A DNA stretch of 58,495 nt, counting the filler, from Asterionella formosa (lineage: Eukaryota), in assembly GCA_002256025.1 (NCBI GenBank). It is 5 parts of 5 records of this genome, joined end to end, with 100 filler letters (N's around TTAATTAATTAA, not from the genome) between each part and the next. Parts side by side here need not be neighbours in the genome. Positions count along the whole stretch, not along the records: positions 35,174 to 46,787 come from NKIB01008302.1; 4 more parts are not named here. One strand, given 5' to 3'. Position 1 is the first letter of the stretch; each line of letters begins with the position of its first letter. Below the pieces are notes generated by a model that ran no database searches, had not been told where the DNA came from, and saw only the letters and a list, made by a program, of their open reading frames with translations. Position numbers and translations under genes: made by a program. Below, in pieces: positions 8,463-53,417 of the stretch.

Positions 8463-9452
8463 ATGGCATCGATACTTTCCACCATTTCCCGTCGAACGGC
8501 TGGAACAGTTGCAGGTCTCGTTGTTGGTTCAGCAGTGGCGTATGGGGCACACCAGTATAGTAGTAGCACTAGTGGTAAAGCTACTACCTCATCCTCAGAC
8601 CCATACGCAAATCTCCCAGCAACAGATGAACCAACGCATTGTACCATTTGTCGAACCAATCGGAATGGACCATGTAAGAATTTATGGCGTAAATTTGAAT
8701 ACTGCATGAAAGATAATCCACCTAAGCGTCAAGAGGATGACAATGGTAGTGCCAACGAAAATGGCAAGGAACCACCTCCAGCATCGGAGGACGATCGCTG
8801 TAACAAGTACATGATGGATTGGATTCCTTGTGTACGAAGCAACTTCATGTTATATGCCATGTTTGCCAATCAAGTCGATGCTGACTATTATGATAAAATA
8901 GAACAGCGACTTTTGGAAAATAACAACGTCGTGAAAGAATGGAAAGCAGATGATATTGATGTGGATTGGTCTGATTACTTGTCCATGTTGCAAGCCGAGC
9001 ACATGAACATTGTCGATGTGTACACAGCTGACCAACGAGTATCGGAGCCACTGTGGAAAGAGGGGGATACAGATGAGACATTACTAGCCGTGGAAGTGTT
9101 TGTCAGGGTGAATTTGCAAGATGACGACCTCCCTATTGCCATTTGCTATGCGAGAGATGACATTGGATCCATTATTGGTGTCGGCCATTTCAAACAACAG
9201 GATGAGGAGGGCAATCAGATTACTGAAAATGCCATGACTATAACGTTCCGACCAAACAAGACTCGTCGCATACGACTATTCAAGGTATATGAAGAAGAAT
9301 TGGGAGAGGACGAACCGGAGAGGCCGTTGAAGAAGATAGCATATGCGTCCGAGGAAATTGACTTGTTGGAAGTGGCTCGCGCTGCTGGAACCTTTGCTCC
9401 TTATTATGTTTGGGAAGGTGCTGATGGGGAAAAACAGAGTGCAGCGAGCTAA
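8463..9452 (+). CDS. GCK-domain (CHCH/Mia40-like twin-cysteine) protein, probably in the mitochondrial intermembrane space
   Basis: N-terminal S/R-rich presequence followed by a hydrophobic anchor (GTVAGLVVGSAVAYGA). Motif CTICRTNRNGPCKNLWRKFEYC...C(NKYMMDWIP)C has CX2C, GPCK and two CX9C spacings. Confidence 0.7.
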   Translation: MASILSTISRRTAGTVAGLVVGSAVAYGAHQYSSSTSGKATTSSSDPYANLPATDEPTHCTICRTNRNGPCKNLWRKFEYCMKDNPPKRQEDDNGSANENGKEPPPASEDDRCNKYMMDWIPCVRSNFMLYAMFANQVDADYYDKIEQRLLENNNVVKEWKADDIDVDWSDYLSMLQAEHMNIVDVYTADQRVSEPLWKEGDTDETLLAVEVFVRVNLQDDDLPIAICYARDDIGSIIGVGHFKQQDEEGNQITENAMTITFRPNKTRRIRLFKVYEEELGEDEPERPLKKIAYASEEIDLLEVARAAGTFAPYYVWEGADGEKQSAAS

Positions 9453-11626: not shown

Positions 11627-11726
11627 NNNNNNNNNNNNNNNNNNNNNNNNNNNNNNNNNNNNNNNNNNNNTTAATTAATTAANNNNNNNNNNNNNNNNNN
11701 NNNNNNNNNNNNNNNNNNNNNNNNNN
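11627..11726. other. Artificial contig linker N44-TTAATTAATTAA-N44
   Basis: Identical 100-bp spacer with six-frame stops occurs four times in the window. Confidence 0.98.
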
Positions 11727-23352: not shown

Positions 23353-23452
23353 NNNNNNNNNNNNNNNNNNNNNNNNNNNNNNNNNNNNNNNNNNNNTTAA
23401 TTAATTAANNNNNNNNNNNNNNNNNNNNNNNNNNNNNNNNNNNNNNNNNNNN
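23353..23452. other. Artificial contig linker
   Basis: N44-TTAATTAATTAA-N44. Confidence 0.98.
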
Positions 23453-24496: not shown

Positions 24497-26570
24497 ATGG
24501 CAATGTATTAAAGGGTTCCTGTCATTCCTTTGATCAAAGATTACAATGTATTGACTATCAAGACTAAAACATTCAGAGTTGCTTTAAGCGGTAGAAGGTT
24601 TGAATTGTTTGATCAAGATATAATCGATGGAAGCTCTGTGGAAGCATTGTTGATTGGAGTGAATCAATTTCGAGACATGGCTAACACATGTGCCTTTAGC
24701 CCTGCAGATACCTTTTCCTACTTTAGAAGGTGTTTGACCGACATTGCCTTATCGGATTGATTGAATGTGGAAGTACATCCAGAAGATCAATCCTGCGATA
24801 GTTTCGATGAAGCAATGTCTTTATGGTTAGACGATCGTTTGCCAAACGAGAGTTTGAAACGTCAATGGATGCTGTGCTACTTGTCTAAACCCTTTTCTAT
24901 GTGGGAATGGATTTCGGAGCTCGTATTAAACTTTGAACAGGCTATTTCAACTAATTCCTCATCCAGAAGATCAAAACGGATTGTCAAAAGAAGATATGCG
25001 GATTATCATCATCCGTTCTATGCCTGATGAGTGGCAACAAGAGTTTGAATTGAATCATGCTAAAACTTCAGATCAATCCATTCGCTCGGTTCTCGCTTTC
25101 TTCGAGAGTCAACAATTGTTTGAGGATCAAAACAAGCACCTTCCCATGAAAATTTTTCAAACAATCACGCAAAATCATCTTTGTATTGCTGAAGGCAATC
25201 GTGTGATGCGTCAAGAAAACGAGTGTGTCAGTCGTCAATTCTACATCGATAATTTTACTCCAAGTGGTCGTGGAAGAGCGCGTGCTATTGTCAATGCAGC
25301 CGGTCGCGCATGGGATCGTCAGGCAACTGTTTGTCATCAAGCTCTACAAGCCAGTCGTACGTACCATGATTATCGTGGCCCTTGCCCGGTACATCCTGAA
25401 GGTACACATACTTGGAGCAATTGTTTTCAGAATCCTCGTACTCAATGTGGTCGAGCAGGTCGCATGGCTGGTCGTCCATAATGGACGTGGCTGTTCCAGT
25501 TTCGGTAGATGAGGACATTTTGGTGGTCGTGGAGGCGGTTCACAGAGTAATCCTACGGAAAGCTACCGTACTGACACTGCTAACCCTGCGCCTGTTCCAC
25601 ATGCTTGTATGTTAAATACATGAGGTCGTAATACTCATCCATCCGATTGGGGTACCGTGCCTTGTGCCGATCCTACCGAGAATACATCGGCCCAGGAAAT
25701 TTCAGTGGTCACAAACCCTCCTGCTGGTCAGATGGTGACTTTTGTCCCTACTACACAACAGCAGATTGCTGATCGCCATTACAGAGGTATGTGCGATAAT
25801 AGCGATGCTTTATATAATGACTCATAGAGTATATCTCATGTTAGTCATCACCTGGATAATATTATTTATTTACAGGTTGAATACACTATGAATACCGCTG
25901 TTGCTGTAACGCAGGACATATATAAATGCATCGATGGACATGACGTTCCACATACTACATATCAGGGCCCAATTCCGGTTTCCTGTTTTACTTCTAAGGA
26001 TATATTAATGATTCCGATGTCTCTTGTAGCGCCACGATTGGTGGATGCTATGCCTATGCCTATGCCTATGCATAAAATACTACAAGTATTATTTGATAGT
26101 GGAGGATCCTTATCCTTAATACAAAAACGGGTTATGCCTCAAGGTATTTCTTTGTCTAATGAGACTTCCCAATTAATACATACCATAGCTGGTACTTATT
26201 CATCTCGTGCGAGAGTTATTTTATATGACCTGATTCTACCTGAATTTAATCGATCTGCTCGTGTTTTAAAACAAAAGTGTCAAGTTTTTAATGGTCTATG
26301 CACATTTGATGCTATTTTAGGACGTGATTTCCTTTGTCAAGTTGGTTTAACCATTGATTTCGTAAATAACACCATGTCCTGTATGGATATGACTGTTCCT
26401 ATGCATTCTCTCACATTCTTTGATGATGGAGAACGTTTACGTGATGTATTATTATGTTTTGATGCACCTATGATTGTGGAATTTTCTTATGCGCTGCAAA
26501 TTAAAGCTGCTGAATATAATTATGTGAATATTGATACAGTGGTGAATAAACAGATGCATTTATGTCCCTG
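24497..26570 (+). mobile_element. Degenerate Ty3/Gypsy-like LTR retrotransposon: gag and aspartic protease remnants
   Basis: Gag-like SMPDEWQQEF and zinc knuckle CPVHPEGTHTWSNC; protease motifs LFDSGGS and DAILGRDFL. Multiple stops and frameshifts. RT absent. Confidence 0.75.
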
Positions 26571-28045
26571 TCCCTGTCGTTTTGCGTGTTTCCTTGGACT
26601 TGGAAAGCTTCATAAAGTAGTGGAGTGTAGTTGAGAAAGCCAAAAGACAGAAACGATTTTGAGGAACCACTAAGAAACGTCAGGACTGCAATGGGGTCAT
26701 TGCAACCTGATAACCATAAATTTGCGAGCGCATGACAAGAAAGTGGGCACTGGATGTGCAGAAATTCGACTGGCGTCTTCGGCTTTAGAAACCGACCTGA
26801 GCTATTGCTGAAGGCAATACACGCCCGAGGTGGTCTCTTGCCTGCGAGTATACATGTGTTCGAGGCTGGAATGGCACTCGTAGGGTGACCTTCTTGCATT
26901 CTGCCAGTACCGGCAGTCATCTAGTCTACATATGTACGTGGTACTGAAAACAACCATGCATGCTTTAAGCTATACTTTCACACTTACTTTGAACACGTTA
27001 TAATATTATCTCTGTAGACTCGGTATTATTTTTACGAGACCTGAATGTTAAATTATATCAGTCACACATTCATTGATTTTACGTACCGTATGTCCGATTT
27101 CGTCCTCACAAATATAGTTCTCACTCTATCTTGCCTGCCTTTGCTCTATTCGGGCTTGCAATAGGCAACATTCGTCTTTCTTTGATCCCATCTTCTGCTG
27201 CTTGTTATGATAGTTGAAGCGGATCGGTGAGTACAACAGTGAAACACTGAATGTTGATTGTAGATCGTATTTATCGACTTTCCAATTTGATTGCTTCTGT
27301 GGTTTATTTTGATCGCTTCCGTCTTTGTTTGTAGTTCCGCACTGTCGTTTTGTTTCGAATTTATGTATCTACATAAGGACCAATGCATTTATCAATGACT
27401 AGTCATTGAAGATGTGGTATTGTGCCGTTGTTGATTGTATTTGTTGATTTGTATAGTCGTTGACAATGATGTCAATATTGCCACCAAGCAATGCTTTTCC
27501 TTTACTAGCGCGCTTTGCTACATTTCTACTACAAGTTTGTATCAGAAGCTACATGACGAATACTCAGCTAGAGGGAGTCGATAGTGCTGAAGAAGCCTGG
27601 CGATTATGCTCAATCAAAATGGATTGGAATGGAATGATGATCAGGGTTGTTTGGTGGGAGGAACGAGGACTGTGGGCGGAAGGACTGCAACTTGTGTCAG
27701 GCTCGCTCCTACAGCGATATGCATGGTTACAGCAAGCAAATCATCTACGCTTCATAACGATGTAGGTCAAGATTGGGTTCAGCTTTTTCCCTTCTTATTT
27801 CGGTCGTTGATTGTGTGGTGATGGAAATTCAATTGCCTGTGTAAGTACTACAACGTCACTATGCATACATCTCCATTGAAACTCTTATTTTTTAATTCAT
27901 TTCTAACCCAAAACAATTTTTTCTATTTCTCATTTGACGCTATTTATTACATTGCATTTCATACTTTGGTTGCTCCAAAAATCATGTTCAATTTTCATTT
28001 ATGTTTCATGTTACAATCATTCTCGTGTGTTTTACGCTTGTAGTA

Positions 28046-35073: not shown

Positions 35074-35173
35074 NNNNNNNNNNNNNNNNNNNNNNNNNNN
35101 NNNNNNNNNNNNNNNNNTTAATTAATTAANNNNNNNNNNNNNNNNNNNNNNNNNNNNNNNNNNNNNNNNNNNN
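35074..35173. other. Artificial contig linker
   Basis: N44-TTAATTAATTAA-N44. Confidence 0.98.
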
Positions 35174-35420
35174 TGCCCTTCAAATGTGGTGGGGTGCTTA
35201 TGTACTTTTCAACTACCAAGGCTTCACATTTAATGACTTTCTAATCTCAAATTTTGCTCTTTTATTCGCCCCTTTGGGTCTTGTTGCTGCCTTTCAAGGA
35301 ATAACTGACAAAAACGAGGCAATGAAGAGTGCTGGACGAATTTTTTACTTGTTGGACAGGAAAAGTGAGATCGATCCATTGAGTGAAAAGGGTAAAAAGT
35401 TGGGTCAAGGTGAGAGTTAG
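35174..35420 (+). CDS. 3' end of an ABCB (MDR/P-glycoprotein-type) transporter transmembrane domain; 5' end truncated
   Basis: WWGAYVL...FALLF...A..SAGRIFYLLDRKSEIDPLSEKG matches ABCB TM5-TM6 and the TMD-NBD linker. Confidence 0.75.
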
Positions 35421-35989
35421 GGTAGGGTTAGGGCAAAGGGACAACGCCACTAGGCGTCCTCCCAATAGATCATCCAGCCCTTCTAGGGCTGGACCTGTAA
35501 CTGTAGCACACAGTATGACTAATCCTACAGATGGAAACTGGTATGAGAATGAATGTGTAAGTACCGGTTGTTTGTTTTTTTGATATGAATTTGTAGAAGG
35601 GCACTGTGTGTACTTACCAGAGTGATGGCTATTTAAAAATGGTATTCATTATTATAATGTTATGCATGTCATATACATATATATATAATTCGCATTCGCA
35701 TTCGCGGGTGCGTCATGAATGACATGGTGGAGTGGCAATATTTGTTATTACTTTTTGGTATGGTTTTGCAATTCCGTGGGCACGGCAACAGTTGCAACAT
35801 GATGATATGGTTTGAAAATTTGAAAAATGTAATTGGTGTCGGTACGAAAAAGATGTTCATGTCATATTTGAAGATGAGTTGGGTTCACTGAATTGAGTAA
35901 AGACGTTGCCATTTGGACAAGAATTGAATGAGAAACAATGGACGGTGTGATCGTCATGGTGTGTTTGTTTTTGATGTCAATGATAATGG

Positions 35990-38085
35990 TTGTACGACAA
36001 TGTTAACGCTTTACTGTACAGTATAATGTACTTGTTAGGGTTACAACTTTTGTCACAATCTGACTTACAACTCAACCTACAGTCAACAATCGTTCAAACA
36101 GTTATCCCAACGTTCAAACAATCGATTCTACATATGTATATCAAATCACGCAACGCATTTGACCAAACAAACGTAACTAACAAGCAGAAACTCTGTATGG
36201 AATCATTTGCCAAAATGACACTTTTTGACAATACTGCTACACTCACTACTATGGAATTCGACAAAGAACACAGCGTAGAGCCCAACCAACTCTCCAAATT
36301 AATTAATGATAAAATAAACAAAGCCACATTATCATTAAGGAAAGAGCTTGCTAAACTCATGGAAGCATCACCATCAAAAAACACATCAAGAGGGGCAACC
36401 AATAGTGTCAACACAACAGTCAAACATGGAAAGAAATCAACAAACAAAACAACCAAGACAACTTCCAGAAAGAAAACAGACCAAAGCGCCTCACAAAAAA
36501 AGAAAAAAACAACCAATCACAACAACATAACCATCAACTCCAAAAACAAAGCCGACGTTATAGACTCAGGTACCTCAACAGAGAACAAAAAACTGACAAA
36601 AAAGAAGAAGACGAAATAGCTAAGAAACATCATCATTGCACGATTTCAATTACAAAACACATCCATTACAACTTTGGATTCATCAGCAACCCAGAAAAAT
36701 CAATATCATACAACACAAAGAAACTTCTTCGAAACCTACCACCCTGGCTATATTTCTCAAGACCACAAAATATTGCATATCACAATCTCTCTACATCCTC
36801 TGAGAAAACCACATTTGGAATTAAATCACTTCTTGGACTTGGCCTCAATTTCTGTATAACGCCAAGATATTCACCCAAAAGTGAAACTATTGACTTCACA
36901 AGATTCAACCAGGACATGTTAATAAAGTTTTACTTCGCAGGTTCTGAACCATTACCTCCAACTAAACTTTTCATTCCCTCCAGTTGGATACCTCCTCATC
37001 ATGAAATCACTTCCGAATTCCGTGTCAGAATCAATACGTTCAAAAAAACACTTCCGACTCTTTTTCGACACAAACACAGTCGACATAACCTCTTACCTGC
37101 CTTCACAACAAAGGGCACTCGAATCACTAACAAACAATGAAAAACTCATTGTTTTCCGTTGCGATAAAAATCTTGGTCCAGCCATTATCGAACGCTCTCG
37201 ATATATTGACATGGCTTTCCGTGACCATCTTCTTAATAAAAATATCTATCGACAACTTTCAGAACAACAACCTGGAGGACGGATCAAGGCAATCACAAAC
37301 CTGATTACGAAGTTTACTCTTATGCACTTTAAACCAAAAGACACAGTATCAACGTTCCTTATCCGATCCCTACAAACAAAAGACCCATTTGCATACTTCT
37401 ACTTATTAGAAAAAATACATAAGACACCACTGACAACCCAGCCAATCATCAGTGTCAGCGGAAGTATTTGCCATGGGCTCAGCAAATGGACTGATGGTTG
37501 TCTCCAAAAAATTACCAAACATCTTCCATTTACCCTCTCAAGCTCCTTCAAGCTTGTCCATGATATTCCTGCCATTAATAATGTTTCAACAACCGCCACC
37601 TTATTTACTATGGACGCATTGGCTATGTACACCAACATAGACACCACACACGCACTTTCCAAGATCAATAAATTTCTACGCACAGACAGACCAGACATCT
37701 GCCTCAACGAAAACATTAATATTGATGCACTCATGAACGCACTCGAAATTATCATACGACACAACATCTTTAAATTTGGTGATACATACTGGCTCCAAAC
37801 ATCCGGCACAGCTATAGGCACACCTCCGGCACCAACATATGCCACTCTTTATTTCGCAATTCACGAAACAAAAATTATCCCTACGTTTCCGCAAATATCC
37901 TTCTACAAACGATATATTGACGATTGCTTTATAATCTGGGTCCCTACATCACCCACCCATATTGAAGATCAACATTCACACAACTTATTCATCAACTCAA
38001 TGAATACTTATGGCACGTTAAAATGGAATGCAGACCCATGAAGTTTATCAACAACCTTCTTGGATCTTACAATCTCTATTGATGG
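35990..38085 (+). mobile_element. Penelope-like retroelement: upstream basic ORF (to 36619) and decayed reverse transcriptase (~36650-38085), truncated by a Copia fragment
   Basis: Motifs LGLGLNFC, DKNLGPAI, KIHKTPLTTQPIIS.SGS, MDALAMYTNI, GTAIGTPPAP, RYIDD, and FLDLTI after an in-frame TGA. GIY-YIG region not present. Confidence 0.85.
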
Positions 38086-40125
38086 TTGTGATGGAATGAG
38101 GGGGATGTTTGCGTAGTGTATTTAAGGTTAGACCTGGAAAATTGACAAGATACCCATGGAGTAATGCGCTTTCCAAAGTGGAGATAACAGGAGAAAAGAG
38201 GGCCGCATGGGCAAAGGCAACAAGGGCTGGTGCATTGGGACTGCCAATGGCGGTAGCAGCGTAGTGGGTAGGTGTAGGCAATGGTGGATCAATAGTGGAG
38301 GTGGTGACATGCCATAATCGAGTGGTGGTGGAGCGATGGCCCTGAAGGATGCAATGACCATTTGATAAGACAGACATGTGTAGTTTGGTGAAGAGTACCT
38401 TGTAGCCAGAATCACATAGTTGTCCAATGCTCAATAAAGAGCAATTGTGTAGACTAGGGACAATGTGTACATGACGAGCAGCAGGTAAGAGCATAGGTAA
38501 AGATAATTTGGCCTCATGTGTAGATTTAACATGGTTGCTGTTAGGAAGTTGAATGGTGATAGGGTTGGTGGTAGGTCGTTTGTTGATGACAGGTAAATCA
38601 ACAGTGGCGTAATTGCCAGAACTACCAGAATCAGCAATGAGTGTGACGGGGGGACAAGTGATGGAAGATAAGTTTGTGTTAATAGTAATATCGACAGCAA
38701 CTTGCTCCCCTCCACATCAAGCAAGTGGTGAAGGTGGCGGTGAAACACGGGGTGGCCAGGTAGGACGGGTACCATCACTGAAAATACGAACGCTGCCACC
38801 CAGATGTCGATCAAGGGTGGCATTGAGTTGATGGCCAGAAGCTGGATGATTGCAAGTTGCACTGGTATGGTCAGGGTTTTTGGTAAGACCATGAGTCCAA
38901 CAATAGCCTAATTGGACATTGTTGTAAGTGTATCCAGAAGGGACAGCACAAGCAGCTGCAGCAATACCTGGCAATGGGGGAGGGCCAGCACTGGTTTGAA
39001 TGGCAGCATGGGCACCATGATAACCGGCAGTGGTGGCGGTGGCAAGGCGCAATCGTTCCTTATCAGCATGCATGAAATGTGGGCAAAAATTAACCCATGT
39101 AGTACGGTCCAGCTCAGCGCGATCACGCCAAGTTTGAATGCTATGAGAATATACACCAGCCTGTTCTAAAGCAGAAAGAGTCAATTGCATGACAGTACTG
39201 TCAGAGAAAGGTTCCCCACCAGCATTGGCAATGGCACAAAGATGTTTGATGTGGATCCATAAATGTTCAATAGGTTCCTCTAGTGTCCAAGCATCAGCCA
39301 AGCGCATGCGATTGAGTTCTAAATCATCCACACTCAATGTTGTATATGTAGATTCTAAGTGAGCAAGCAAGGTCAGAACAGTGATGTCTGCATATCCAAA
39401 TGTAGCATCTTCCAGAACGTTGTAGAAATTTGGGTCAATGGCTGTTAGAATTTGTTGTCGGAGAATTTCACGGATTTGGGAGTAACAGCGGAATGCGTCA
39501 AGGGAGGTCTCAAAGAGACGGTTGGCAGCAGTGATTTGGGAATGTGTTGCAGTAGCACTTTGTGGCGGCTGGATGTCGGGATGTTCGGGCGGTACAAAGG
39601 GTTCACCAGCACGTAAAAGATAAGGAGCAGCAGCCATGACAATACCAAGGAAACCATTGGCACCACCACCACTGGTACAGTGGACAGAGCGAGCGTTGGC
39701 AAAGAGTTCCTTGCGAAGGCGGGTTACAGTGAAGGCTGTAGGTTTGCCCTCGATCGGCATCAAGAGCGGATGAGGGAATGGGAAAACAGCGGAAACGATT
39801 GGAGTCGTCATGGTGGAAGAAGGCCTGAGAGACAGGGACAGCAAACGGGCAAGCGGTGCTGGATGGTTGATTGTTGAGACCAGTGCTGGTTTGCACTGTC
39901 GACAAGAGCCGCAACGTCACAGGTGCGGACAAGAGAGAGAGAACAGATATTGTAGTTCTGTTGAGGGGAACCTTGTCGTGAATAAAGATGAACTACAATA
40001 TTATGACTATTCTGTTGCTGTTCCAAGTACATCATTGTTAGCACTCATGTATGTACCTAATCTGGTGGCTGCGCCAGTATGGTTCGTACGGCGCATGTAT
40101 GGAGCATCATATCTAGATATTAACA
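38085..40125 (-). mobile_element. Ty1/Copia LTR retrotransposon of the diatom CoDi type, 5' portion: LTR 39959-40125, gag 38717-39811, protease and pre-integrase region 38085-38716
   Basis: LTR TGTTAATATC...CCCCTCAACA. Gag GGG.NG.LG and YCWTHG...HTSATC; protease ADSGSSGNY and LLSIGQLCD; HAALFSP...FPGLT. Confidence 0.9.
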
Positions 40126-40233
40126 ACTATGATTCTTTGTGTAGAGACTATGATTCGTCACTTCCACTTATCAATGCTTCTGCAATGGTATCACCTGGTA
40201 CTCGGAGTGCAGCTAGTAATCAGTACCACGTCC

Positions 40234-40440
40234 CTGGTACGGAGTATATAACAGGTACTCTGATAGCTCGGAGCTTCGGAGTACTTGAGGAAGTCTCGAG
40301 TACCAGTACAGCTGGTACGGCGGAATATGTACCTGATAGCTGGTACGGAGTATGTAACAGGTACTCTGATACTTCGGAGCTTCGGAGTACTTGAGGAAGT
40401 CTCGAGTACCGGTACAGCTGGCACAGCGGAATATGTACCG
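40234..40440. repeat. Tandem duplication, two copies of ~106 bp
   Basis: ctggtacggagtat.taacaggtactctgata..tcggagcttcggagtacttgaggaagtctcgagtacc occurs at 40234 and 40340. Confidence 0.9.
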
Positions 40441-41609
40441 GGTACCTGGTACCTTGTACGCAGTGATAATTAAGTAAGTAGTGTAGCCTATGCACTGTAC
40501 GGAAGCTTGGTATGCTTACTGTACGTGGATGGTGCTGTGGATGGGACGATCAGCGATTCGGTTGTACAATGAAGTAGATTGCACTACGTAGGTTTGTACG
40601 GTCGAAATTGCTATGACGAAAACACAAGTGATAACTTGCTCAATATATTTGTCCACTCCGCCCTAATATGTATCAATGAACGTGGATGGTCTATCCAGAT
40701 ACCAAGGATGCCAGTCACAGTGAAATGATTGATTTTCGTATCACAATTTCGCTGTAGCAATAACAGTGAGGAAACGAAAAACGAAAAAGCAAGTACGATG
40801 ATTGTCCTTGGTGCTTCTGGTTCACAAGTGAACCGCACGACACCCAGTTAGATAAACCCCGTAGCCGGCAACTATCGATGTACTGTAGATCAATAGTGCA
40901 ACAAAGTAGTGCGTAGGTTTGCGATTACGAACGACGATCACCACCTAGTGTAATTATTCCGTAGCGGAAGATCTGACTCAACGAGAACGAACTACCGGAG
41001 TAGTGTATTGTGGTAACTGGTAAACAGTACTTATGAAACACTCGTGCACAGATGATCGTTTACAGTACAGTATTTTCGTAGCCAAAATAGTGTGAAGATA
41101 TGAAAACGATTCACGACGAAAAAGAAAAACGCCGTTGACGATGTGTTGCGAATGAAAAGCAGGCAACCTTTGAATGCCAAATAGCACTCTTTTGATAAAG
41201 ATTACTCAATACACTTGTCTACTTCTGCTGTTTAGTGTAGTATATAGATAAACAGATGTAGCAGCCAAATGAATGATGCGACAACAATCGAAAGCGAACG
41301 AGATTTTTCGATCGGCGCCGACAGTGAGATCGAATTAACAATCAACAATTTCGTTTCTTTCAAGGAAACAGCTTGGGCTCATAACCTGCAGTGAAAGAGG
41401 GGACGAGAGAGATCGACGAGGTCGATGAACGAGGAGACGATAGAGGAGGGGAGTCCGATAACTAACCTGACAAGCTCAAAAGGAGATTGGAAGGTGTGTT
41501 TGTTAAAAGAGTGATTAGATTAAGTTGATATAGAAGAACGATGATTTAAATAAGATGCATAGGTACTGTCAGACAAACAGACACAGACATATACTGACAC
41601 GTCATGTAA

Positions 41610-42605
41610 AGAGGTGATTCACAACATCGAACTCTATTGAAGATGGCTCAGCATGCCCTGCTGAATTGGAAGAAGGCCTTAGCATTTGGGTCGCGATCTT
41701 TACTCCCTGATGGGACTTTGCCTTCCGGGAACAATGTTGAAGACTATGACAACCATGTATTAAACCATATGTTTCGATATCTGAAGGGTCGAACCAGCTA
41801 CAGCGACCCAGCTAATGATGAGGATGATGATGATGATGAGGAGGAGGAGGAGGAGGAAATCTTGGGTGCTGCTGTGGCATTGAATGATGATGTTGGGATG
41901 CCTGTGGATTATTATTTTCATGGCTGGATTGGATTCAAATTGTTTGGACCATTTGCTAGAGATAAGTTCAAGTCTATTCTCTTGCTAACAAAAAATTGTG
42001 TCTTTGAGAATGGCAAGAAAGATTCAGCAGGCCGTGCATCAGCTAGAAAATTGGTTGCAGAAGAATGAAGTTTCAGTCGTTCTTCTGATATGTCAATTGA
42101 TTGCTCCATTGGAAGCAGAGGCAAGCTGAAAGTCGAGGACGCAGCAAAACTGGCTTTATCAAAAGATTTGATTCACAATTCAATTGTGGGAAATGCATTG
42201 TTTGGTCTGAGTCAATCTGCTGCATGCACTCGTGATCGGATAAAAGGTCTTCTGCAACAACAAGCTAGATACCCATTGGAACATATAATGTTTGCAAACA
42301 TCCAAACCAAGCTTGATATTTTAGATGGAAAACTGGAATCTATTACAAATCAGATTGACAGTCTGTCTTCTCAGAGAACCAGAAAACGTGAAAACATTGT
42401 GAATGAGTATTACTCAAAGAAGAGTAGATTCATGTCATCATCAAGTCCATTGTCAGATGATATTCCCAGCTCAAGCCCCTTCTCACCTGTGAATGACTTG
42501 GGTATATTAAGTATGACTACTAAAAATCAGCAACTAGGTGACATTATCTCGCCTGTTGCAAGGCGAGATCCAATTGGCAATTTGGATGACTTCGTCTATG
42601 AATGA
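41610..42605 (+). pseudogene. Probable Harbinger ORF1 (Myb/SANT-associated accessory protein), with one internal TGA and the 5' part missing
   Basis: ORFs 41637-42068 and 42090-42605 are in the same frame. LPSG motif, acidic tract and coiled-coil C-terminus. Convergent with the Harbinger transposase. Confidence 0.55.
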
Positions 42606-42720
42606 AAAATGCGTTAGGCCTTCTAACACTTTTGCTTAATTGTCGACTACCCCACTAAATAAATACATATGGAATACAACATTATAAAAAAATTCAATTA
42701 CATAAAATTGTGAAATTAGA

Positions 42721-43995
42721 TTATAAATTAGACCACCCTGTTCCGTCATGTTGCAATAAGAATGACGAAAATTTCTGGTTACGACCGCATATTGATCCAT
42801 CAGTGTGTATGTTGTTATCTTGTCGTTTCAGTTTGGCGACAGTGTGTCCATTTCTTTGTTTTATAGCTGGCGATAAATAGAAATGAATCCGAAGAGCACC
42901 ATTTTTTTACTATTATCCAAAGCTCCTCCATGGACTATATCTCCACGCATGAGAAAGATGAATTTGAATGGTGTGGACAAATGTATTGCATGTTTCTCAT
43001 CTGCACAGTTATCCCATATATTTAATCAATTCGCTCCTAAAGACAACGACATTATCATTCCCCAAGGCATAGGTGTTTCCCTTTCGCATTCTGTTGGTGT
43101 ATAATCTTGATGTGGTTTCTGAGGTTTTGGGTAGCCATTCTTTCCAGAATTGGTGAACAACACAGTGGCAGTGTGCGGTATAACTCTGTCATTATTGCTG
43201 GAGACATCATTGGAACCTGGTAGTAACAATGACTTTATCATATGCCAAAATGGTTTTACATTTGGCAGATCCAGCTTTGAATATTTTAAGCTGTCAGTAT
43301 AATTCTTGAAAGGAAACACTGACTTGCATGGCTTTTCCTTCCATAGTATTTGCAAGTTCTTTGTATTATGCAGTTGTTTTGAATGTTTGTTTCAACAAAT
43401 GAAGAGGAGGGTTATAGATTTTCTCAGAAGTACAAAAAGATTTTGCCACATGTAAAAATGGATCGTCTTTTTCTTCTGTTCCAAAAAACTCATCTGGAAG
43501 GAAAGATAGATTGAGGAAAAACACGCGTTCTTGTTCATTTCCGTCGATAACATAAAGGAAGTTATCTGTTCTCAGAACTGTTTTGATTAGCCGTAATGAA
43601 TCAGTGATGAAACATAGGAAGTCTTTTATCTCTGCTGCATTTGGCGGCATATTTTTGTCTTTCTTCCATAAAATCATCGCTGGTCCTATATGATTCCGAA
43701 ATTTCCTTGAAGTTCCAAATGATGTTTTGTTAAACAAGCCAGACTCTAGGACTATATAGAACTGGTTGAGAACAAAATCCAGGACATTGTCATCTAGCCT
43801 CGTCTCCTTGCCTTTGTCATCATGATCAAAGTATCTAACCAGTAAGAGTCGTTCCTTACTTTTCCGTTGTCTCTTGAACAGACATGAAATGCGCCATAGT
43901 AGAAACACGTTTTTCCTGATTGAACAATCTGCAATCGATACCCCCTTCACAACCATTATCTTTCCATTCCTTGTAGCACTCGGAACATTTGACAT
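42721..43995 (-). pseudogene. 2OG-Fe(II) dioxygenase (PhyH-like double-stranded beta-helix) gene with two frameshifts and one TGA
   Basis: Manual translation beyond the ORF track: PQKPHQDY (HxD)...GAN*LNIWD...LMRGDIVHGG (distal His)...[frameshift in A-run]NGALRIHFYL (2OG-binding Arg)...stop at 42721-42723. Confidence 0.72.
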
Positions 43996-44177
43996 TCCGC
44001 CCAGATAACAAAAGATATATTGCACTATCGATAGCGTGCGAAAGTCAAGAGAAACAAGGAAGCAGAAAGGGATAATGGTCTGTCAACAAAGGATGCATTA
44101 AACAGTGGGCGAGTGCTGGATCAGAAGCAATGCAGCACCGACATACTCAGTAATATACATTAGATTGGTAGCGCAAA

Positions 44178-44402
44178 GCTACAGTTTCATAGTACCAGTG
44201 TAGTAATAGGTATAGTTTCTTAGTACATGTGTCATGTTCTGACCGGGTATTGAAACAAGGGGAAGAAGGGAATGCTGGTAGGGCAAACCTACAGTCTCAT
44301 AGTACTAACGTAGCAATAGGTACAGTTTCACAGTTTCACAGTTTCACAGTAGCCACATCATGTTCTGACCGGGTATTGAAACAAGGGGATGATAGGAATG
44401 CG
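44178..44402. repeat. Two diverged ~110-bp tandem copies between the transposase and the dioxygenase gene
   Basis: tcatgttctgaccgggtattgaaacaagggga occurs twice, together with cagtttca mini-repeats. Confidence 0.85.
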
Positions 44403-44496
44403 GAAATTTTATTCGCAGATGTTGGTGCCCAGTAATCTAATTTAGTTCATGCTCATACTAATTTTCTTTTAGTTTCTAAATAGATAATTGTATAGT

Positions 44497-46558
44497 TTAG
44501 GGATGATCATTTACATTACGACGTGATGGCCAAACAATCTTGTTTTGTTTCCATAAAATATCAAAATGTTCAATGAGTTTACTCTTGAAGAACTGTAAAC
44601 TTAAATGCTGGACCACTTGAACTGTATCAACATTCTTTGTTAGCACTTCAATATTGAAGTTGTCCTTTGGATCTGGCACTAAATTGCGAATTGCATCAGG
44701 AATTTGTCCATCACCATCATTACCAGGACCCATTCCAGAGGTATCAATTGTTCGCAAACTGACTAATCCAAGTACTGTCGGTCTTGCAACTGCATTTAGC
44801 CTTTGAATAGCAAAAGGTGCTTCAGCTCCGTTTAATTGGCCTAATGGTCCTCTCCAGTCACTTAAAACACCATTTTGCCATTGCAGGTCTAAGCCATCAA
44901 TATCAAGTAACATGTTATGAAATGCACATTATGTTAGCTAGACCTTGTCAGGTTCTGTTACTCCATGTATTCGGATGCCTGATTTTAAAATCCGCCAGCA
45001 TCCCTTGAGTATTCCAAAGGTACATTCCACATCTTTTCTAAAAGACTCCAGCCATTCAGACCATCTAAGTTCTTGTTCAGTTTCTGGGTTTTTGGTTGGA
45101 GGCACTGTTGTAGACCATTTTAGATATCCATCGTCAACTATCAAAAAGCATCCACTATACTTTATGGATAGAACTGCTCCATTTCGATCTTTTTCTTTAA
45201 GCTCAAACTCCACATCTTTTAAGGCATCTGCACCATTCTGGATGCCTCGAGCAAAAGTATCAAAGTTGATTAATGTTTTATCATTCCATCGACAAGGATG
45301 CCCTGTGGTACTAGACAGGATTCTCCGGCGATGATTCACAGTAGCATTATAAGTCCTGGCTGTACAAGGAATTTTTGATGATAAATGCTGGTTCCAAAGC
45401 TGATTGAAGCATCACTCTTTTGACACATGTGTAGCATCTGTGGACCCAAGACATCCAGGGAAACCTGCCTGTGTCATTTCAAACATGTGATGCTCTGCTT
45501 CCAATGGGTTTGTTGGAGTTCTAACATATTTTTTGTAAAAGGATGGTACTTCCAACTTCAATAAAGGCATGGAAGAATTGCCTGTGGATCTCTTGACTGA
45601 TACCAGTATTCTCCTCAATGTCATCAAAAGTCCATCCTCTCCCTAGGTACCTGAATGCTCCTAAAACCATAAGTTCAAGGGGTGATGATGCCCTTCCTGT
45701 TGCATTAGGTCGAGTCCAGCGAGGAAACCAATTTGAATCTCTAGCATCAACAACAAATTGGAGGAACTGGTTGTGTGGTAGTCGAAATCTGCGGCGGAAT
45801 TTCTTTTGAAATGACAATGATTCAACTGCTGGTCTGGAAATGTATAGTATATACCAGTTTAACATCATCACAGGAGTTATCATTTGAATTAGCCCTTTGT
45901 CATTGACGTATTCACAGACCTTGTTCTTTCCTTTCACTCTAACTCTTGGAGGTAGAGGCACATTGTTAAGATTTTGTATTTCTGGAGTGGGCATGAGTAG
46001 AGTTCTTCCGAAATCAGACAAAAACTAAAGATACTGGAAGTATTTCTCTGGTTCTACCTCACCATTAGCATCTAGACATTGTACAATGTTATGTGGGCGA
46101 TGGTCACATGAATCCATGAGTGCCATGTTGGTGAAATGTGGGTTTGATGACATGTTGATTGTGGAGAAATCCGAGATGATTTGTTGTTCTTGCTGTTGTT
46201 GTTCTCGACAGTGTGGTCCCCTGGTACCTGGTACCAGAGTACCGTATAGCTATTGTTGTATCTATGTATGCTATACTGGTAAATGATGCGTCCTATATGT
46301 ACTGATTCTACGATGATAATAATTGGGTTTCTAGTGAATACATTCAAAGTAGTCAATATGGAATCCTACGTTTGGGTAACTTTGGGAAAAAAAACCTAAA
46401 CGTAATGCGTTTGGGTAAATTATTGGGATATGGGCACGGAATCTCCTAAACGTAATGCGTTTGCGTTGGGGTTTTCACTCCCGTTAGCATCGTTTTTTAG
46501 GGTTACCGAAACCAAAACACTGTTTGGTTTGCGTTTTGGTCCACCGTTAGCAACGGCC
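44497..46558 (-). mobile_element. PIF/Harbinger transposase pseudogene (44497-46153) with subterminal repeats and a TIR ending at 46558
   Basis: Motifs KFRRRFRLP, GFPGCLGSTDATHV, LIVDDGY and ESFRKDVECTFGILK (DDE). Terminus CCACCGTTAGCAACGGCC|TAA. cctaaacgtaatgcgtttg is repeated nearby. Confidence 0.9.
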
Positions 46559-46561
46559 TAA

Positions 46562-46787
46562 CTCCGTAACTAAAAGAAGTCCCGATGACATGTTCTACGG
46601 CGAAATGAATCCAAGAAGGCCCTACAAGTTATACAAGCAATTTGGGCGCGTAGGCTGGGATACTACAAGACACGGCATTAAGAAATTAGACGCACGTTCT
46701 TTCAAGTGTGTCTTTTTGGGTTATTCGGAGGACCACTCCCAAGATACGTATCGTATGTATAATCATGAGACTAACACTGTAATCAAT
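46562..46787 (+). mobile_element. Copia integrase C-terminal (SH3-like) fragment; target of the Harbinger insertion
   Basis: KKLDARSFKCVFLGYS..H..DTYRMYN is the canonical Copia post-integrase motif. Confidence 0.85.
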
Positions 46788-46887
46788 NNNNNNNNNNNNN
46801 NNNNNNNNNNNNNNNNNNNNNNNNNNNNNNNTTAATTAATTAANNNNNNNNNNNNNNNNNNNNNNNNNNNNNNNNNNNNNNNNNNNN
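46788..46887. other. Artificial contig linker
   Basis: N44-TTAATTAATTAA-N44. Confidence 0.98.
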
Positions 46888-51539: not shown

Positions 51540-53417
51540 TTCGTCATGGTGATCAACAAGTAGTTGAACTCTATTCTACCATTGACTTTGTTTACCCACA
51601 GCCACTGTTTCATTCAAGAAGTTGCAGTGTGAAGTAACATGCAAATCCATGCAGTCACCTCGCACAGTATGCGCAATATGCTGTGTCAGAACTTTCACAG
51701 TCAAGGTAACCATCGCTTTCTAATAGAATGTTATGAAGCATACAGCATAATGTGAACGCATTTTTGATATGCTCAGGTCAAGACAAGTTGTTCCAGTTCT
51801 TAAGAAATAACCATCAACTTTTCAATATACCAAAAGTACATTCAATATCTTTTCGAACAGACTCCACCATCATAACCCATGCCCTTTTTTTCCATGTTCA
51901 TTGCCATATTTAATTGGACAAATCAACACTGGCCATCGTAGGTACCCTCCATCACAAATGAAATATTAGCCTTTACAAGTTATAGAAGACTCAACAGTGA
52001 GCACATTCCACTCTTGCCTGCCAAGAAACGAATTTCTATCATGTAGATTGGAAACAGCAGCATCAAACTTGACTATGTGTTTGTCATTTCTTGTTCCAGG
52101 GTTTAAGTAGCTGATTGATAAAATCTTTCTTCTGTGATCAGAAACCACCTCAAAAACAACTGAAAGATACCCCATGGAACCTTTAAATATATTCTTCTGG
52201 TAGGCAGGACATCGATTCCATCCAATGTGCACACAATCGACTGAGCCTATACAACCTGGAAGCCCAATGGAACTGTAATCATTTAGAATTTGTTGCAGTT
52301 GGTCATCATCTTCCTCTTCCTCTTCCTCTCTCAGTATGTATACATATTCATCCTTCTTTTCTGCAAACTTTGAAGTCCAGTGAATGAAAAAAATTTCGGT
52401 GTACCTCTTTAGAGATGTCAGTTTGAATGTACACATACAAATCGGAAGCACCGGTTGCTAGAGTGTAGAGAACACCCAGGAAGAGCAACTCAAGGTCCTT
52501 GCACAGAAGGTTGGTGCAATCTTTCCTGTGCGGATCATACCAACCATTTGATATTGTCATATCATACATTTTCAAGAATATGTCGAATGGAAGACGAATA
52601 GTTTGCAAAAGAGTCTTACTTCCCATGTGTTCATGTCCAAATGTAAGATGCGCTTTTCGTTTGTTAGGAACTTCTTCCACCAACATGACTCTTCCCTTGA
52701 CACCAGAGAGGTCGTTTCTAAAAGATGCGCTTTTTGTTTGTTAGGAACTTCTTCCACCAACATGACCCTTCCTTTGACACCAGAGGTCGTTTCTTTTTTT
52801 TGGCTTAGCAGATGTTGTTGGATGGCGATTGCTGTTTGATGGCAATTGCTGATTCTCTCTTTCAGATTGAGCTTCCAAATGGAACTGAGAAACCAGCTCA
52901 TTTCGCAACGCAGCTGGCAAGGCTGCTGGTAGTTGCCATGACAACCATTGTTGCTGCCATGGCTGAACACACTGTTGATAATGTGCCAGGAAGGTTGACG
53001 ATGGCGTTGGTGGAGTCGTCATGTTACAAATTATTATCATAACAAAAACATTAAAAGTATCAATTATTATATTAATAATGACAATAATACTACAATAAAA
53101 GTACCGAAGCATCGAATACTATATCATCAGTATATGTGATGACGATTATATATTGTTTCCGCCATTCTGATTGGTGGAGACAATCTTCGTTTGCCCGAAG
53201 ATTAATCTTTGGGAAACGAAGATTGTTCAAGAAAATACTAAGATTGGTTCAATATCGGGGATAACCCTCGAAATATTCAGGCGAACGAAGATTAATCTTC
53301 GTAATCGGGGGGATTTACGAGTTATTTAGCCCGTAAGGGACGAAAACACGAAGATTATACGCCCAACAGGTATCCGGGCGACTGAATCTTCGTAATTCGG
53401 CCACTGTAAGATGGGCC
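51540..53417 (-). mobile_element. PIF/Harbinger transposase pseudogene (start near 53022) with a TIR ending at 53417
   Basis: Motifs GLPGCIGSVDCVHI, ICDGGY, ESVRKDIECTFGILK and CCMLHN. Terminus CCACTGTAAGATGGGCC|TAA. Subterminal palindromes cgaagattaatcttcg. Confidence 0.88.

Follow-up and report, generated by a model that had tools for sequence, protein, structure and literature searches.

A decayed, left-truncated PIF/Harbinger transposon, probably of a microalga, with a probable oxygenase-like cargo gene

Does a gene bearing the motifs of an Fe(II)/2-oxoglutarate oxygenase, found beside a Harbinger-type transposase, belong to the transposon, and what kind of protein might it encode? The question arose from a stretch of 58,495 nucleotides (the window) of the Asterionella formosa assembly GCA_002256025.1, made of five parts joined by filler, in which positions 35,174 to 46,787 come from NKIB01008302.1 (the 11.6-kb piece). 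Our favoured explanation, which we hold to be likely, is that 41628-46558 represents the decayed remains, cut off on the left, of one copy of an abundant (high-copy) three-gene PIF/Harbinger transposon of a eukaryotic microalga, whose cargo, a probable oxygenase nearest to PhyH, is mobile between transposon lineages.

Three genes of the element

The gene content of the element was established as follows.

41628..42605, plus strand: third gene of the element, running towards the oxygenase-like gene (convergent); 5'-truncated, its frame interrupted by a TGA at 42066-42068
42721..43995, minus strand: oxygenase-like pseudogene of ~425 codons, from ATG at 43995 to TAA at 42721-42723
44088..44496, no strand: spacer from the transposase 3' end to the oxygenase-like gene 5' end; 44166-44401 is a tandem pair of ~110-126-base units
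44497..46153, minus strand: PIF/Harbinger DDE transposase pseudogene with DDE_Tnp_4 and Plant_tran matches, frames broken
46154..46558, no strand: right subterminal region and terminus, with direct subterminal repeats, ending ...CAACGGCC
46559..46561, no strand: TAA target site at the right end, from X7 and X15 contigs
46562..46787, plus strand: copia-type integrase fragment (SH3-like domain), the flank that holds the insertion

The minus-strand transposase that the original prediction had placed next to the oxygenase-like gene is indeed of PIF/Harbinger type, since 44938-45411 matched DDE_Tnp_4 (PF13359; 5.1e-11, 42.9 bits against a cut-off of 24.8); Plant_tran (PF04827) matched the same interval at 2.3e-8, both matches coming from one of the ten fragments scanned. 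Its reading is broken by a TAG at 46027-46025, a 1-base insertion near 45537, a TGA at 45414-45412 and stops at 44940-44929. The base at 45537 is missing from most other copies, and other letters stand there at 44929, 44930 and 44939. A second, distant Harbinger fragment was seen elsewhere in the window, at 51796-52620, on a piece with no oxygenase-like gene.

The predicted minus-strand gene of about 420 codons at 43995-42721 was likewise found, with its motifs QKPHQDY at 43121-43101, RGDIVHGG at 42947-42924 and LRIHFY at 42894-42877, and it is broken by a TAA at 43368-43366, a 4-base insertion (frameshift) near 43318, a TGA at 43028-43026 and a frameshift near 42905. Locus L001 encodes an intact 457-aa homologue of the whole reading (tblastn E 6e-37, residues 34-487), which is therefore no chance pattern. 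The 4 bases at 43318 are missing from other copies and from RNA contigs, the latter having the frame-restoring form, and other copies have ~36 additional bases near 43662. Every close genomic copy recovered (window, L003 and L008) carries lesions, and no intact copy of the window's subfamily was found among them. The dN/dS of the close copies was 0.5-0.7, a value from only 11-19 substitutions that is indistinguishable from neutral decay.

As described, the third gene and the oxygenase-like gene are convergent, and the transposase lies on the far side of the latter. What remains of the third gene corresponds, at 91% identity (tblastn), to residues 171-442 of P0020, a conserved protein of 448 aa; residues 1-170 of P0020 had no tblastn match in the window. 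P0025 (508 aa, 42%) and P0026 are relatives of P0020, with invariant blocks common to them. The third gene had been called ORF1-like, a label that cannot be upheld in the sense of Myb/SANT-like: the protein is conserved, yet the intact 448-aa form gave no Pfam match better than E 0.22 and no Myb/SANT domain, and its four relatives carry no precomputed Pfam domain. Its dN/dS was 2.2 on 18 substitutions. The three genes had also been thought to carry similar numbers of lesions, which is correct for the transposase and the oxygenase-like gene (~4-5 each) and incorrect for the third gene, with one stop plus the truncation.

RNA contigs of 97-98% identity from two studies covered all three genes and left out the 44098-44485 spacer. 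In this spacer bin the depth was 966,602 in X1 against 5.4 in X15 and 3.5 in X16, so that the spacer is present in DNA runs and nearly absent from two RNA runs. The element family probably comprises three separately transcribed genes, for a DDE_Tnp_4 transposase, a third protein, and an oxygenase-like protein between them; the third protein, conserved and with no recognisable domain, stands where the usual Myb/SANT partner would be.

The oxygenase-like protein family

Fe(II)/2-oxoglutarate oxygenases are marked by a metal triad, HxD/E ... H, followed by an R or K that binds 2-oxoglutarate (2OG). Our alignment shows this pattern in the family of the oxygenase-like protein: H-x-D-[YF] occurs in 17 of the 18 rows that cover the column, all 15 covering rows keep the distal H in RGDxVHGG, and all 13 keep R-x-H. 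The family is rare, with 18 phmmer matches among 1,835,955,588 representative proteins, none of them tied to a known family. Intact relatives are those of L001, P0018, P0015 and P0008, and a conserved ~250-residue N-terminal region lies ahead of the C-terminal ~230 residues that bear the motifs.

The original prediction had considered the motifs to be PhyH-like rather than TET/JBP-like, and PhyH is indeed the better lead for the nearest family. In a protein-language-model search, PhyH-bearing clusters made up 13 of the 30 nearest Atlas clusters of P0018 (top score 0.95) and 25 of the 30 named nearest clusters of P0008 (top score 0.94); these matches are leads only, because they share 150-163 features against the 170 typical of true family members, and their scores are at a level that shuffled proteins attain ~1 in 100 to 10 in 100 times. 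The best match to Pfam PhyH (PF05721) was found in one of 22 members, P0013, at E 0.023 and 15.4 bits, under the cut-off of 22, and it spans a stretch that ends at the HxD motif. Pfam scans of family members gave no match to Tet_JBP (PF12851) at E<=10, and no family in Pfam, NCBIfam or PHROGs exceeded its cut-off for the oxygenase-like proteins. AlphaFold2 models of two runs, strand-rich after HxD, had a mean pLDDT of 44.2 and 43.1 and were unusable; Foldseek of a low-pLDDT model against the PDB returned 0 matches at E<=0.001, and PDB sequence searches with family proteins returned no match.

The failure of every family model to reach threshold, the two unusable structure models, and Atlas matches under 170 features with scores within reach of shuffled proteins would all fit a protein that is no oxygenase, but carries HxD, H and RxH in another beta-rich fold or as a derivative without catalysis, and serves transposition as a structural or DNA-binding factor. 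We regard this as doubtful, because all three motifs persist among sequences of 20-45% identity, ordered and spaced as expected of a facial triad plus a 2OG-binding arginine. Furthermore, two members with ~30% mutual identity are independently nearest to PhyH, their ten best named matches forming one family or clan, the weak Pfam match covers the stretch up to HxD, and even the low-confidence models are rich in strands past it. The oxygenase reading, which we prefer, shares with PhyH the HxD ... H ... R ligand order and, for two members, proximity in protein-language-model features; it differs in that no member reaches the Pfam cut-off (15.4 bits vs 22) and in the N-terminal region attached here. 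We know of no PhyH members that act on DNA or chromatin, or that ride transposons.

Ends, copies and the probable internal position of the gene

PIF/Harbinger elements duplicate 3 bases at the target site, usually TAA/TTA. The right end predicted for the transposase side, ...CAACGGCC followed by TAA at 46558/46559, was established by 22 X1 contigs that match to this point and beyond it no longer resemble one another (agreement 0.42). The right flank without the element is represented by one X7 contig, which matches from 46559 on with different letters before, and 3 X15 contigs match through 46561 and then diverge. Direct repeats occupy the subterminal region (46395-46416/46445-46466 at 95%, 46459-46492/46522-46555 and 46369-46382/46408-46421), and the two units of the spacer, 44166-44275 and 44276-44401, match each other at 75% identity. 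In the flank, SH3_retrovirus (PF25597) matched 46551-46787 at 7.8e-10; the assembled piece ends at 46787, and an N44-TTAATTAATTAA-N44 linker follows from 46788.

On the other side, the element showed neither a left terminus nor a pair of TIRs, and no target-site duplication was visible. The search for a TIR partner of the right terminus in 35174-46400 found none, the best being 14/16 bases with two gaps at 42614. A left TIR suggested at 42617 had to be rejected on account of this poor match, and because other copies continue straight through the site: colinearity with L003, with L009 and with an RNA contig (42156-42691) extends across it. The piece consists of a mosaic of repeats, and the copy is truncated at 41627, where the homology of L009 stops; the third protein thereby lacks its first 170 residues. 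Hence the left end is absent from the window, and a second copy of the TAA duplication is not visible.

Repetitiveness was evident from the 57,202 X1 contigs on the 11.6-kb piece, run matches coming mainly from freshwater and 'algae' samples. Distinct X1 contigs per single site numbered 45-76 in the oxygenase-like gene (64 at 43163 and 76 at 43938, for example), against 46-69 for the transposase and 26-37 for the third gene, and summed depth was 293k-780k over 42546-44097 against 350k-494k over 44486-46037. Internally deleted contigs, each joint being a single contig aligned at 80% likeness in a possibly mixed sample, had joints 42500->45989 (side 42), 42590->44511 (side 49) and 42316->46339 (side 20). 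Since such contigs connect the side of the third gene with that of the transposase, they support an internal position of the oxygenase-like gene in the element; the joint 42590->44511 implies an element form without it. L003, L008 and L009 (96%, 87% and 93% identity; from other metagenomes) share the order third gene, oxygenase-like gene, spacer, L008 being colinear with the window from 42854 to 44505. Beyond the window, the link from spacer to transposase is given by one X7 contig (44396-44767), possibly the same locus in another strain. With dozens of distinct X1 contigs per site, as for the transposase, together with the deletion joints and colinear copies, the claim that a repeated unit of Harbinger type carries the gene as cargo, and that it is no single-copy host gene, was supported.

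Could two separate repeats nevertheless lie side by side, the oxygenase-like and third genes forming a mobile or repeated unit of their own, or a multi-copy host pair, next to which a Harbinger landed or was misjoined from short reads? The gene would then be no Harbinger cargo, as might be argued from the missing left TIR and second target-site copy, from the repeat mosaic truncated at 41627, from other subfamilies whose neighbours are Plavaka or a coiled-coil ORF and no Harbinger, and from the joint 42590->44511 and the stop of L008 at 44505, which give the gene segment a cassette-like appearance. We find this unlikely. The joints 42500->45989 and 42316->46339 delete across both genes with both sides kept, as in internal-deletion derivatives, depth is similar across both genes, and the X7 contig spans 44396-44767. 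Moreover, the listed loose ends of the stretch 42605-46558 include no diverse-flank boundary; agreement is 0.75-0.96 at 43664, 43998 and 44087, as shared variants would give.

The family also recurs beside an unrelated transposase, which is new here: on a marine contig, L001, an intact 967-aa Plavaka ORF (PF18759, 1.2e-10) lies 385 bases upstream of the intact 457-aa relative on the same strand. L002 has the gene of L001 at 98% identity with a different 5' flank. Equally new is a third subfamily in decayed repeats, with L004, L005 and L006 as diverged, decayed, repeated copies, two of them frameshifted, in which L004-L006 homology ends abruptly. Family members in this sample were found only in repeat or transposon contexts. 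As part of the explanation favoured above, and with the same good likelihood, the oxygenase-like gene would be a passenger that moves between transposon lineages.

Relation to known transposons and possible role

Plavaka and KDZ transposons were reportedly associated with TET/JBP genes in Basidiomycota by Iyer et al. in 2014. The original prediction further assumed that Harbingers encode only a transposase and a Myb/SANT-like protein, which is outdated: Kojima 2025 (PMC12730594) describes fungal Harbingers with a transposase, a TET/JBP dioxygenase and a non-Myb third protein. Fungal TET/JBP-carrying transposons, including these three-gene Harbingers, are the closest precedent, and descriptions of dioxygenase-carrying transposons have so far been confined to fungi and to TET/JBP enzymes (PMC12730594). 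As here, the PHISTA Harbingers of rust fungi add a dioxygenase gene to their Harbinger-type DDE transposase and encode a third protein without Myb/SANT, and families with and without the dioxygenase coexist (PMC12730594). They differ in their fungal hosts, against an alga-like host from water samples here, in TA duplications against the 3-base TAA target (PMC12730594), and in the enzyme, which here is no recognisable TET/JBP and has PhyH as its nearest lead. Plavaka/KDZ elements of Basidiomycota resemble L001 in the dioxygenase gene beside a Plavaka transposase, and our family as a whole in the spread of one enzyme family over unrelated transposon lineages (PMC12730594), whereas the oxygenase family is different here and the contigs come from marine or freshwater, non-fungal samples. 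Canonical PIF/Harbinger elements have the DDE_Tnp_4 transposase, TAA target, subterminal repeats and convergent second gene in common with ours, but two genes instead of three, and the non-transposase partner here is without Myb/SANT. HarbingerS and MuDR elements of Phytophthora, cited in the same paper, carry SET methyltransferase genes, and so likewise join a Harbinger-group DNA transposon to an enzyme possibly acting on epigenetic marks, the enzyme class being different here (PMC12730594).

A very divergent TET/JBP-type enzyme, which would make this a non-fungal case of the known TET-carrying transposons, is very unlikely: the genomic habit is the same (beside Plavaka in one case, in the other within a Harbinger whose third protein is non-Myb), and 'PE-type' proteins of Agaricus transposons, missed by ordinary sequence searches, were linked to TET only via HHpred or structure comparison (PMC12730594), but here the Pfam scans had no Tet_JBP match, both members tried were nearest to PhyH in the Atlas, and phmmer over 1.84e9 representatives returned no more than the 18 proteins, none tied to a known family.

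For the PhyH-nearest reading, a role can be proposed by analogy. In the ~425-residue protein, the C-terminal ~230 residues retain the HxD ... H ... RxH of Fe(II)/2OG oxygenases, and the N-terminal ~250 conserved residues might give targeting. An active oxygenase would oxidatively remove or alter a silencing mark on DNA or chromatin, which would help the element; we infer this anti-silencing role from the one proposed for the TET/JBP genes of fungal transposons (PMC12730594). More tentatively, we may be dealing with an undescribed PhyH-like, non-TET/JBP Fe(II)/2OG oxygenase family that, in algae or protists, was repeatedly captured by unrelated DNA transposon lineages, namely Harbinger, Plavaka and one or more further repeated units, and that would counter silencing by oxidizing a methyl mark on DNA, RNA or chromatin. 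In this case the elements would be a convergent non-fungal, non-TET counterpart of the fungal TET-carrying transposons.

Its small size, the lack of a Pfam model and its occurrence in this sample in repeat or transposon contexts only make the family a clean candidate for a new substrate, be it a DNA, RNA or chromatin mark, and its members can serve as a marker to annotate such elements in algal genomes. Should the family prove to be an active oxygenase, the capture of enzymes by transposons would be wider than described, extending to other eukaryotic lineages and to a second, unrelated oxygenase family. Such captures would then point to a selective advantage of a general kind, the simplest being that the element escapes epigenetic silencing.

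A high-copy three-gene Harbinger-type element

Our analysis revealed that the three-gene Harbinger-type element at 41628-46558 belongs to a high-copy family; this copy is decayed and truncated at the left, and the oxygenase-like gene lies inside it. The features are as follows.

Features of the element and its right flank
41628-42605 (+): third gene, one in-frame TGA at 42066-42068
42721-43995 (-): oxygenase-like pseudogene, ATG at 43995, TAA at 42723-42721
44166-44401: two tandem units of ~110-126 bases, 75% alike, in the spacer, conserved in the copy L008
46153-44497 (-): transposase pseudogene, upstream of the oxygenase-like gene on the same strand
46551-46787 (+): flank, copia-type integrase SH3-like domain (PF25597, 7.8e-10)

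The linkers at 11627-11726, 23353-23452, 35074-35173 and 46788-46887 (N44-TTAATTAATTAA-N44) join five pieces of ~11.6 kb, so features on different pieces are not genomic neighbours; as the element sits on piece 35174-46787, sequence left of 35174 or right of 46787 is no context for it. On the same piece, 37890-40217 is a further very high-copy repeat (summed depth of 250k-730k in X1, a DNA sequencing run) with long minus-strand ORFs, for example one of 399 aa at 38720-39916 (minus strand), and without any Pfam match. On other pieces, an ORF at 25828-26631 (+) with a weak match to retroviral aspartyl protease (RVP, 2e-4) is probably part of an LTR retroelement; an open frame of 845 residues at 4831-7365 (-) has no Pfam match; and 51796-52620 (-) is a further PIF/Harbinger transposase fragment (Plant_tran 1.7e-10), distant from the first at 28-33% identity, and no homologues of the oxygenase-like or third protein were detected on its piece.

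The minus-strand reading of the oxygenase-like gene is real, and the claimed motifs QKPHQDY (43121-43101), RGDIVHGG (42947-42924) and LRIHFY (42894-42877) are all present. It is split, as had been said, here into four frame segments, with breaks at TAA 43368-43366, a frameshift at ~43318, TGA 43028-43026 and an A-run frameshift at ~42905. The transposase carries TAG 46027-46025, a frameshift at ~45537, TGA 45414-45412 and two stops in 44940-44929; only its fragment 44938-45411 matched Pfam among the 10 fragments scanned (DDE_Tnp_4 5.1e-11, Plant_tran 2.3e-8). Other copies lack some of this damage. At 43318 the window has 4 bases, and at 45537 one, that are absent from most X1 depth and from RNA contigs, both of which have sense letters at 44929, 44930 and 44939. 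In the copy L003 the catalytic domain is unbroken, without the TGA and the second frameshift seen in the window. Several lesions are thus private to the window copy. This copy also carries an in-frame deletion in the N-terminal region: other copies (17 + 13 X1 loose ends and one contig of the DNA run X7) hold ~36 extra bases, or 12 in-frame codons, at 43662-43664. Every close genomic copy examined showed some damage, and no fully intact member of the window subfamily was recovered.

The run search found part of the stretch in 20 runs, which belong to 12 studies; most are lake or freshwater samples, and one is an 'algae metagenome'. Contigs of four runs were aligned to the whole piece at 80% likeness. 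X1 alone placed 57,202 contigs on the 11.6 kb piece. Distinct X1 contigs per site numbered 45-76 in the oxygenase-like gene, 46-69 in the transposase and 26-37 in the third gene, and summed X1 depth was of the same order over 42546-44097 (293k-780k) and 44486-46037 (350k-494k). The oxygenase-like gene is therefore repeated as much as the transposase is; it is no single-copy host gene. Metagenome contigs were further scanned with the two most conserved peptide patterns, giving 158 pattern matches, of which nine encode relatives (the L-numbered loci below); viral contigs gave 6 matches and prokaryote genome contigs 16, with no relatives in either. Three of the nine loci are close copies in which the order third gene, oxygenase-like gene, spacer is preserved.

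Close copies of the element in metagenome contigs
L003: 96.2% identity to 42406-43659
L008: 87% identity to 42854-44505
L009: 92.8% identity to 41627-43101

The right terminus at TAA was confirmed. There, 22 X1 contigs match to 46558/46559 and continue into mutually unlike sequence (agreement 0.42), and three contigs of the RNA run X15 diverge likewise after 46561; just within this end there are direct subterminal repeats. From 46559 onward one X7 contig matches the window, with other letters ahead of that point, and represents the target site without the element; we infer that the 30 letters before 46559 continue the flank frame without a stop, if they adjoin the junction. Because the flank encodes a copia-type integrase domain and the element ends at 46558/46559, the element was inserted at a TAA within a copia-like integrase. 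The pre-target letters of the X7 contig occur nowhere in the window, which means that this piece lacks the other half of the interrupted copia element.

At the left, the proposed TIR at 42617 proved untenable. It agrees with the right terminus in 14 of 16 bases with two gaps, and L003, L009 and an RNA contig (42156-42691) run straight across it, so 42617 is not an end. No partner of the right terminus was found in 35174-46400. The window copy is truncated at 41627, where it adjoins a simple repeat, and the window has no left terminus. Inside the unit, loose ends at 43664, 43998 and 44087 have agreement of 0.75-0.96, which marks them, among the loose ends listed, as shared sequence variants and not element ends; other boundaries may lie among 1,129 further loose ends. 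X1 joints at 42500->45989 (side 42), 42590->44511 (side 49) and 42316->46339 (side 20), each a single contig from a sample that may contain more than one organism, look like internal-deletion derivatives of one element. The joint 42590->44511 implies an element form without the oxygenase-like gene, a parallel to the TET-plus/TET-minus families of fungi.

The third gene had been called 'ORF1-like'; if that label stands for a Myb/SANT protein of the Harbinger kind, it found no support: the third protein has no Pfam domain (best match E 0.22), and its relatives carry no precomputed domains. L009 encodes an uninterrupted third protein of 448 residues. The window matches it at 91% over residues 171-442 and has no counterpart of residues 1-170 or of the DNA before them in L009. 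The protein is conserved: long invariant blocks, such as NWKKALA and PDGTLPSG, are common to it and its relatives P0025, of 508 aa and 42% identity, and P0026, which is 49% identical along part of its length.

The oxygenase-like protein family

The gene belongs to a genuine but rare protein family. We ran phmmer with the central 176 residues, reading the stop as X, against 1,835,955,588 representative proteins, and obtained 18 proteins at E<=0.001, seven at <=1e-10 and two at <=1e-30. Nine of the 18, at 62-85% identity, are short fragments that resemble further decayed copies, and several of them show frame damage of the same sort; another five are longer, with 284-404 residues and 29-45% identity. 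In a 22-row alignment, H-x-D-[YF] was kept in 17 of 18 covering rows, the exception being a frame-damaged stretch of L008, while the H of RGDxVHGG was kept in 15/15 and R-x-H in 13/13. A search with the profile of family alignment A1 returned only three proteins, all in the alignment already.

The N-terminal half had been called unrecognised. The intact 457-residue L001 protein aligns to residues 34-487 of the window reading in all three frames (27-41% identity, E 6e-37), and since this alignment spans the whole reading, the N-terminal half is also conserved, including the common block FLLNLSFLPD.FFG. The N-terminal fragment, searched among longer proteins, gave 382 candidates and none significant. 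Among close copies, dN/dS came out at 0.5-0.7 in the oxygenase-like gene, with 11-19 substitutions in each pair, and at 2.2 in the third gene, with 18 substitutions; with so few, neither value can be distinguished from neutral decay. Only the conservation of the motifs and both protein halves, across 20-45% identity, shows constraint.

The weakest part of the case is the oxygenase identity. Pfam scans of eight family proteins gave no meaningful match, and NCBIfam and PHROGs scans of 21 members gave none; PDB searches by sequence, with profiles A2 and A6 and the single family proteins P0013 and P0008, returned nothing relevant. The check by AlphaFold and Foldseek ran without support for a DSBH fold. 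AlphaFold2 models were of low confidence, with pLDDT 44.2 for the family protein P0018 (13-row alignment) and 43.1 for the L001 catalytic domain (21 rows; nearly all residues under 60). For the latter, Foldseek against PDB gave no match at E<=0.001, and its top rows (T-cell receptors, capsids) are meaningless.

Other evidence points to PhyH. In the ESM Atlas feature search, whose PhyH matches are leads and not proof by the tool's own calibration, the top cluster for P0018 had PhyH on 51% of its members (score 0.95, 163 common features) and the PhyH set made up 13 of 30 matches; for P0008, ~30% identical to P0018, it made up 25 of 30 among named clusters only (top score 0.94, 150 features). The fragment P0013 matched Pfam PhyH at E 0.023 and 15.4 bits, below the cut-off of 22, over a stretch that ends at HxD. 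A look for PhyH itself (PF05721) in E. coli K-12 and 14 control genomes gave no match. The spacing after the distal histidine of the family presumably resembles that of PhyH enzymes. No Tet_JBP match appeared in the Pfam scans of the family, and these leads favour the original preference for PhyH over TET/JBP. The protein is probably an Fe(II)/2OG oxygenase nearest PhyH.

Relatives beside other transposases

The marine contig L001 (8.5 kb) places a relative next to a different transposase.

Features of L001
529-3432: Plavaka-type ORF, intact, 967 residues
3817-5190: oxygenase-like relative, intact, 457 residues, same strand, 385 bases after the Plavaka-type ORF
5145-5213 and 8471-8539: 69-base direct repeat, the first copy overlapping the oxygenase-like 3' end, the second 3.3 kb downstream near the contig end

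The first ORF matches the Plavaka transposase model PF18759 at 1.2e-10 and 41.6 bits (cut-off 26.3) over positions 34-320 of 325. The 69-base repeat might signal the boundary of a unit or a further, partial copy. In L002, which stems from a different data set, the same gene is present at 98% identity, with a 5' flank that differs from 23 bases before the ATG.

L004, L005 and L006 form a third subfamily. L004, which shares its sample of origin with L005, has a 562-residue ORF with a convergent coiled-coil ORF; the copies in L005 and L006 are frameshifted. L004 1603-5509 and L006 4-3940 contain a ~4-kb unit, 83% alike, with the oxygenase-like gene, the convergent coiled-coil ORF and two ORFs of 211 and 372 aa that have no Pfam match, and homology stops sharply after ...ATGAACA(A/C)GGGC. 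The unit may be an element of unassigned type, and the three loci appear repeat-like in behaviour; no transposase was recognised at any of them. The partner or third proteins of the three subfamilies are unrelated to one another (BLASTP E 6, hhalign probability <1%).

Transcription and comparison with known systems

Transcripts of related copies exist. Contigs of two RNA studies, a polyA library made from the X1 sample and a lake metatranscriptome, cover all three genes at ~97-98% identity. RNA depth over 44098-44485 was 3.5 and 5.4, in contigs that cannot rank expression or give strand, at the place where DNA run depth is highest, and this gap speaks against plain DNA carry-over. The tandem units, present in DNA runs, are nearly absent from RNA runs; lying upstream of the oxygenase-like gene, they may be its promoter region. 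The RNA coverage fits one transcript for the transposase and another for the oxygenase-like gene, with a start of the second between about 44097 and 43995.

TET/JBP genes lie inside eleven lineages of fungal DNA transposons, Plavaka families among them; in the Harbinger-type 'PHISTA' families, also included, the dioxygenase is combined with a transposase and a third protein that has no Myb/SANT domain (Kojima 2025, PMC12730594). The three-gene architecture here thus has a close published precedent. In that text, passive gene transfer between transposon lineages and escape from methylation-based silencing are inferred; diatoms, stramenopiles, non-fungal hosts and PhyH are unmentioned in it, and the sole 'alga' match is a CMD1 reference (PMC12730594). 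A shallow full-text search of the open literature found no report of eukaryotic transposons that carry a PhyH-like oxygenase or another one outside the TET group. The enzyme family and the host group appear new.

Collectively, the gene, its motifs and its place as Harbinger cargo in the original prediction have stood, but the TIR at 42617 and the Myb-like third gene have not. An anti-silencing role of the oxygenase-like protein is possible, though we rate it less likely than not. The gene family recurs next to a Plavaka transposase as well as in a further repeated unit, and since only the oxygenase-like gene is common to the three subfamilies, it looks like a passenger moving between elements.
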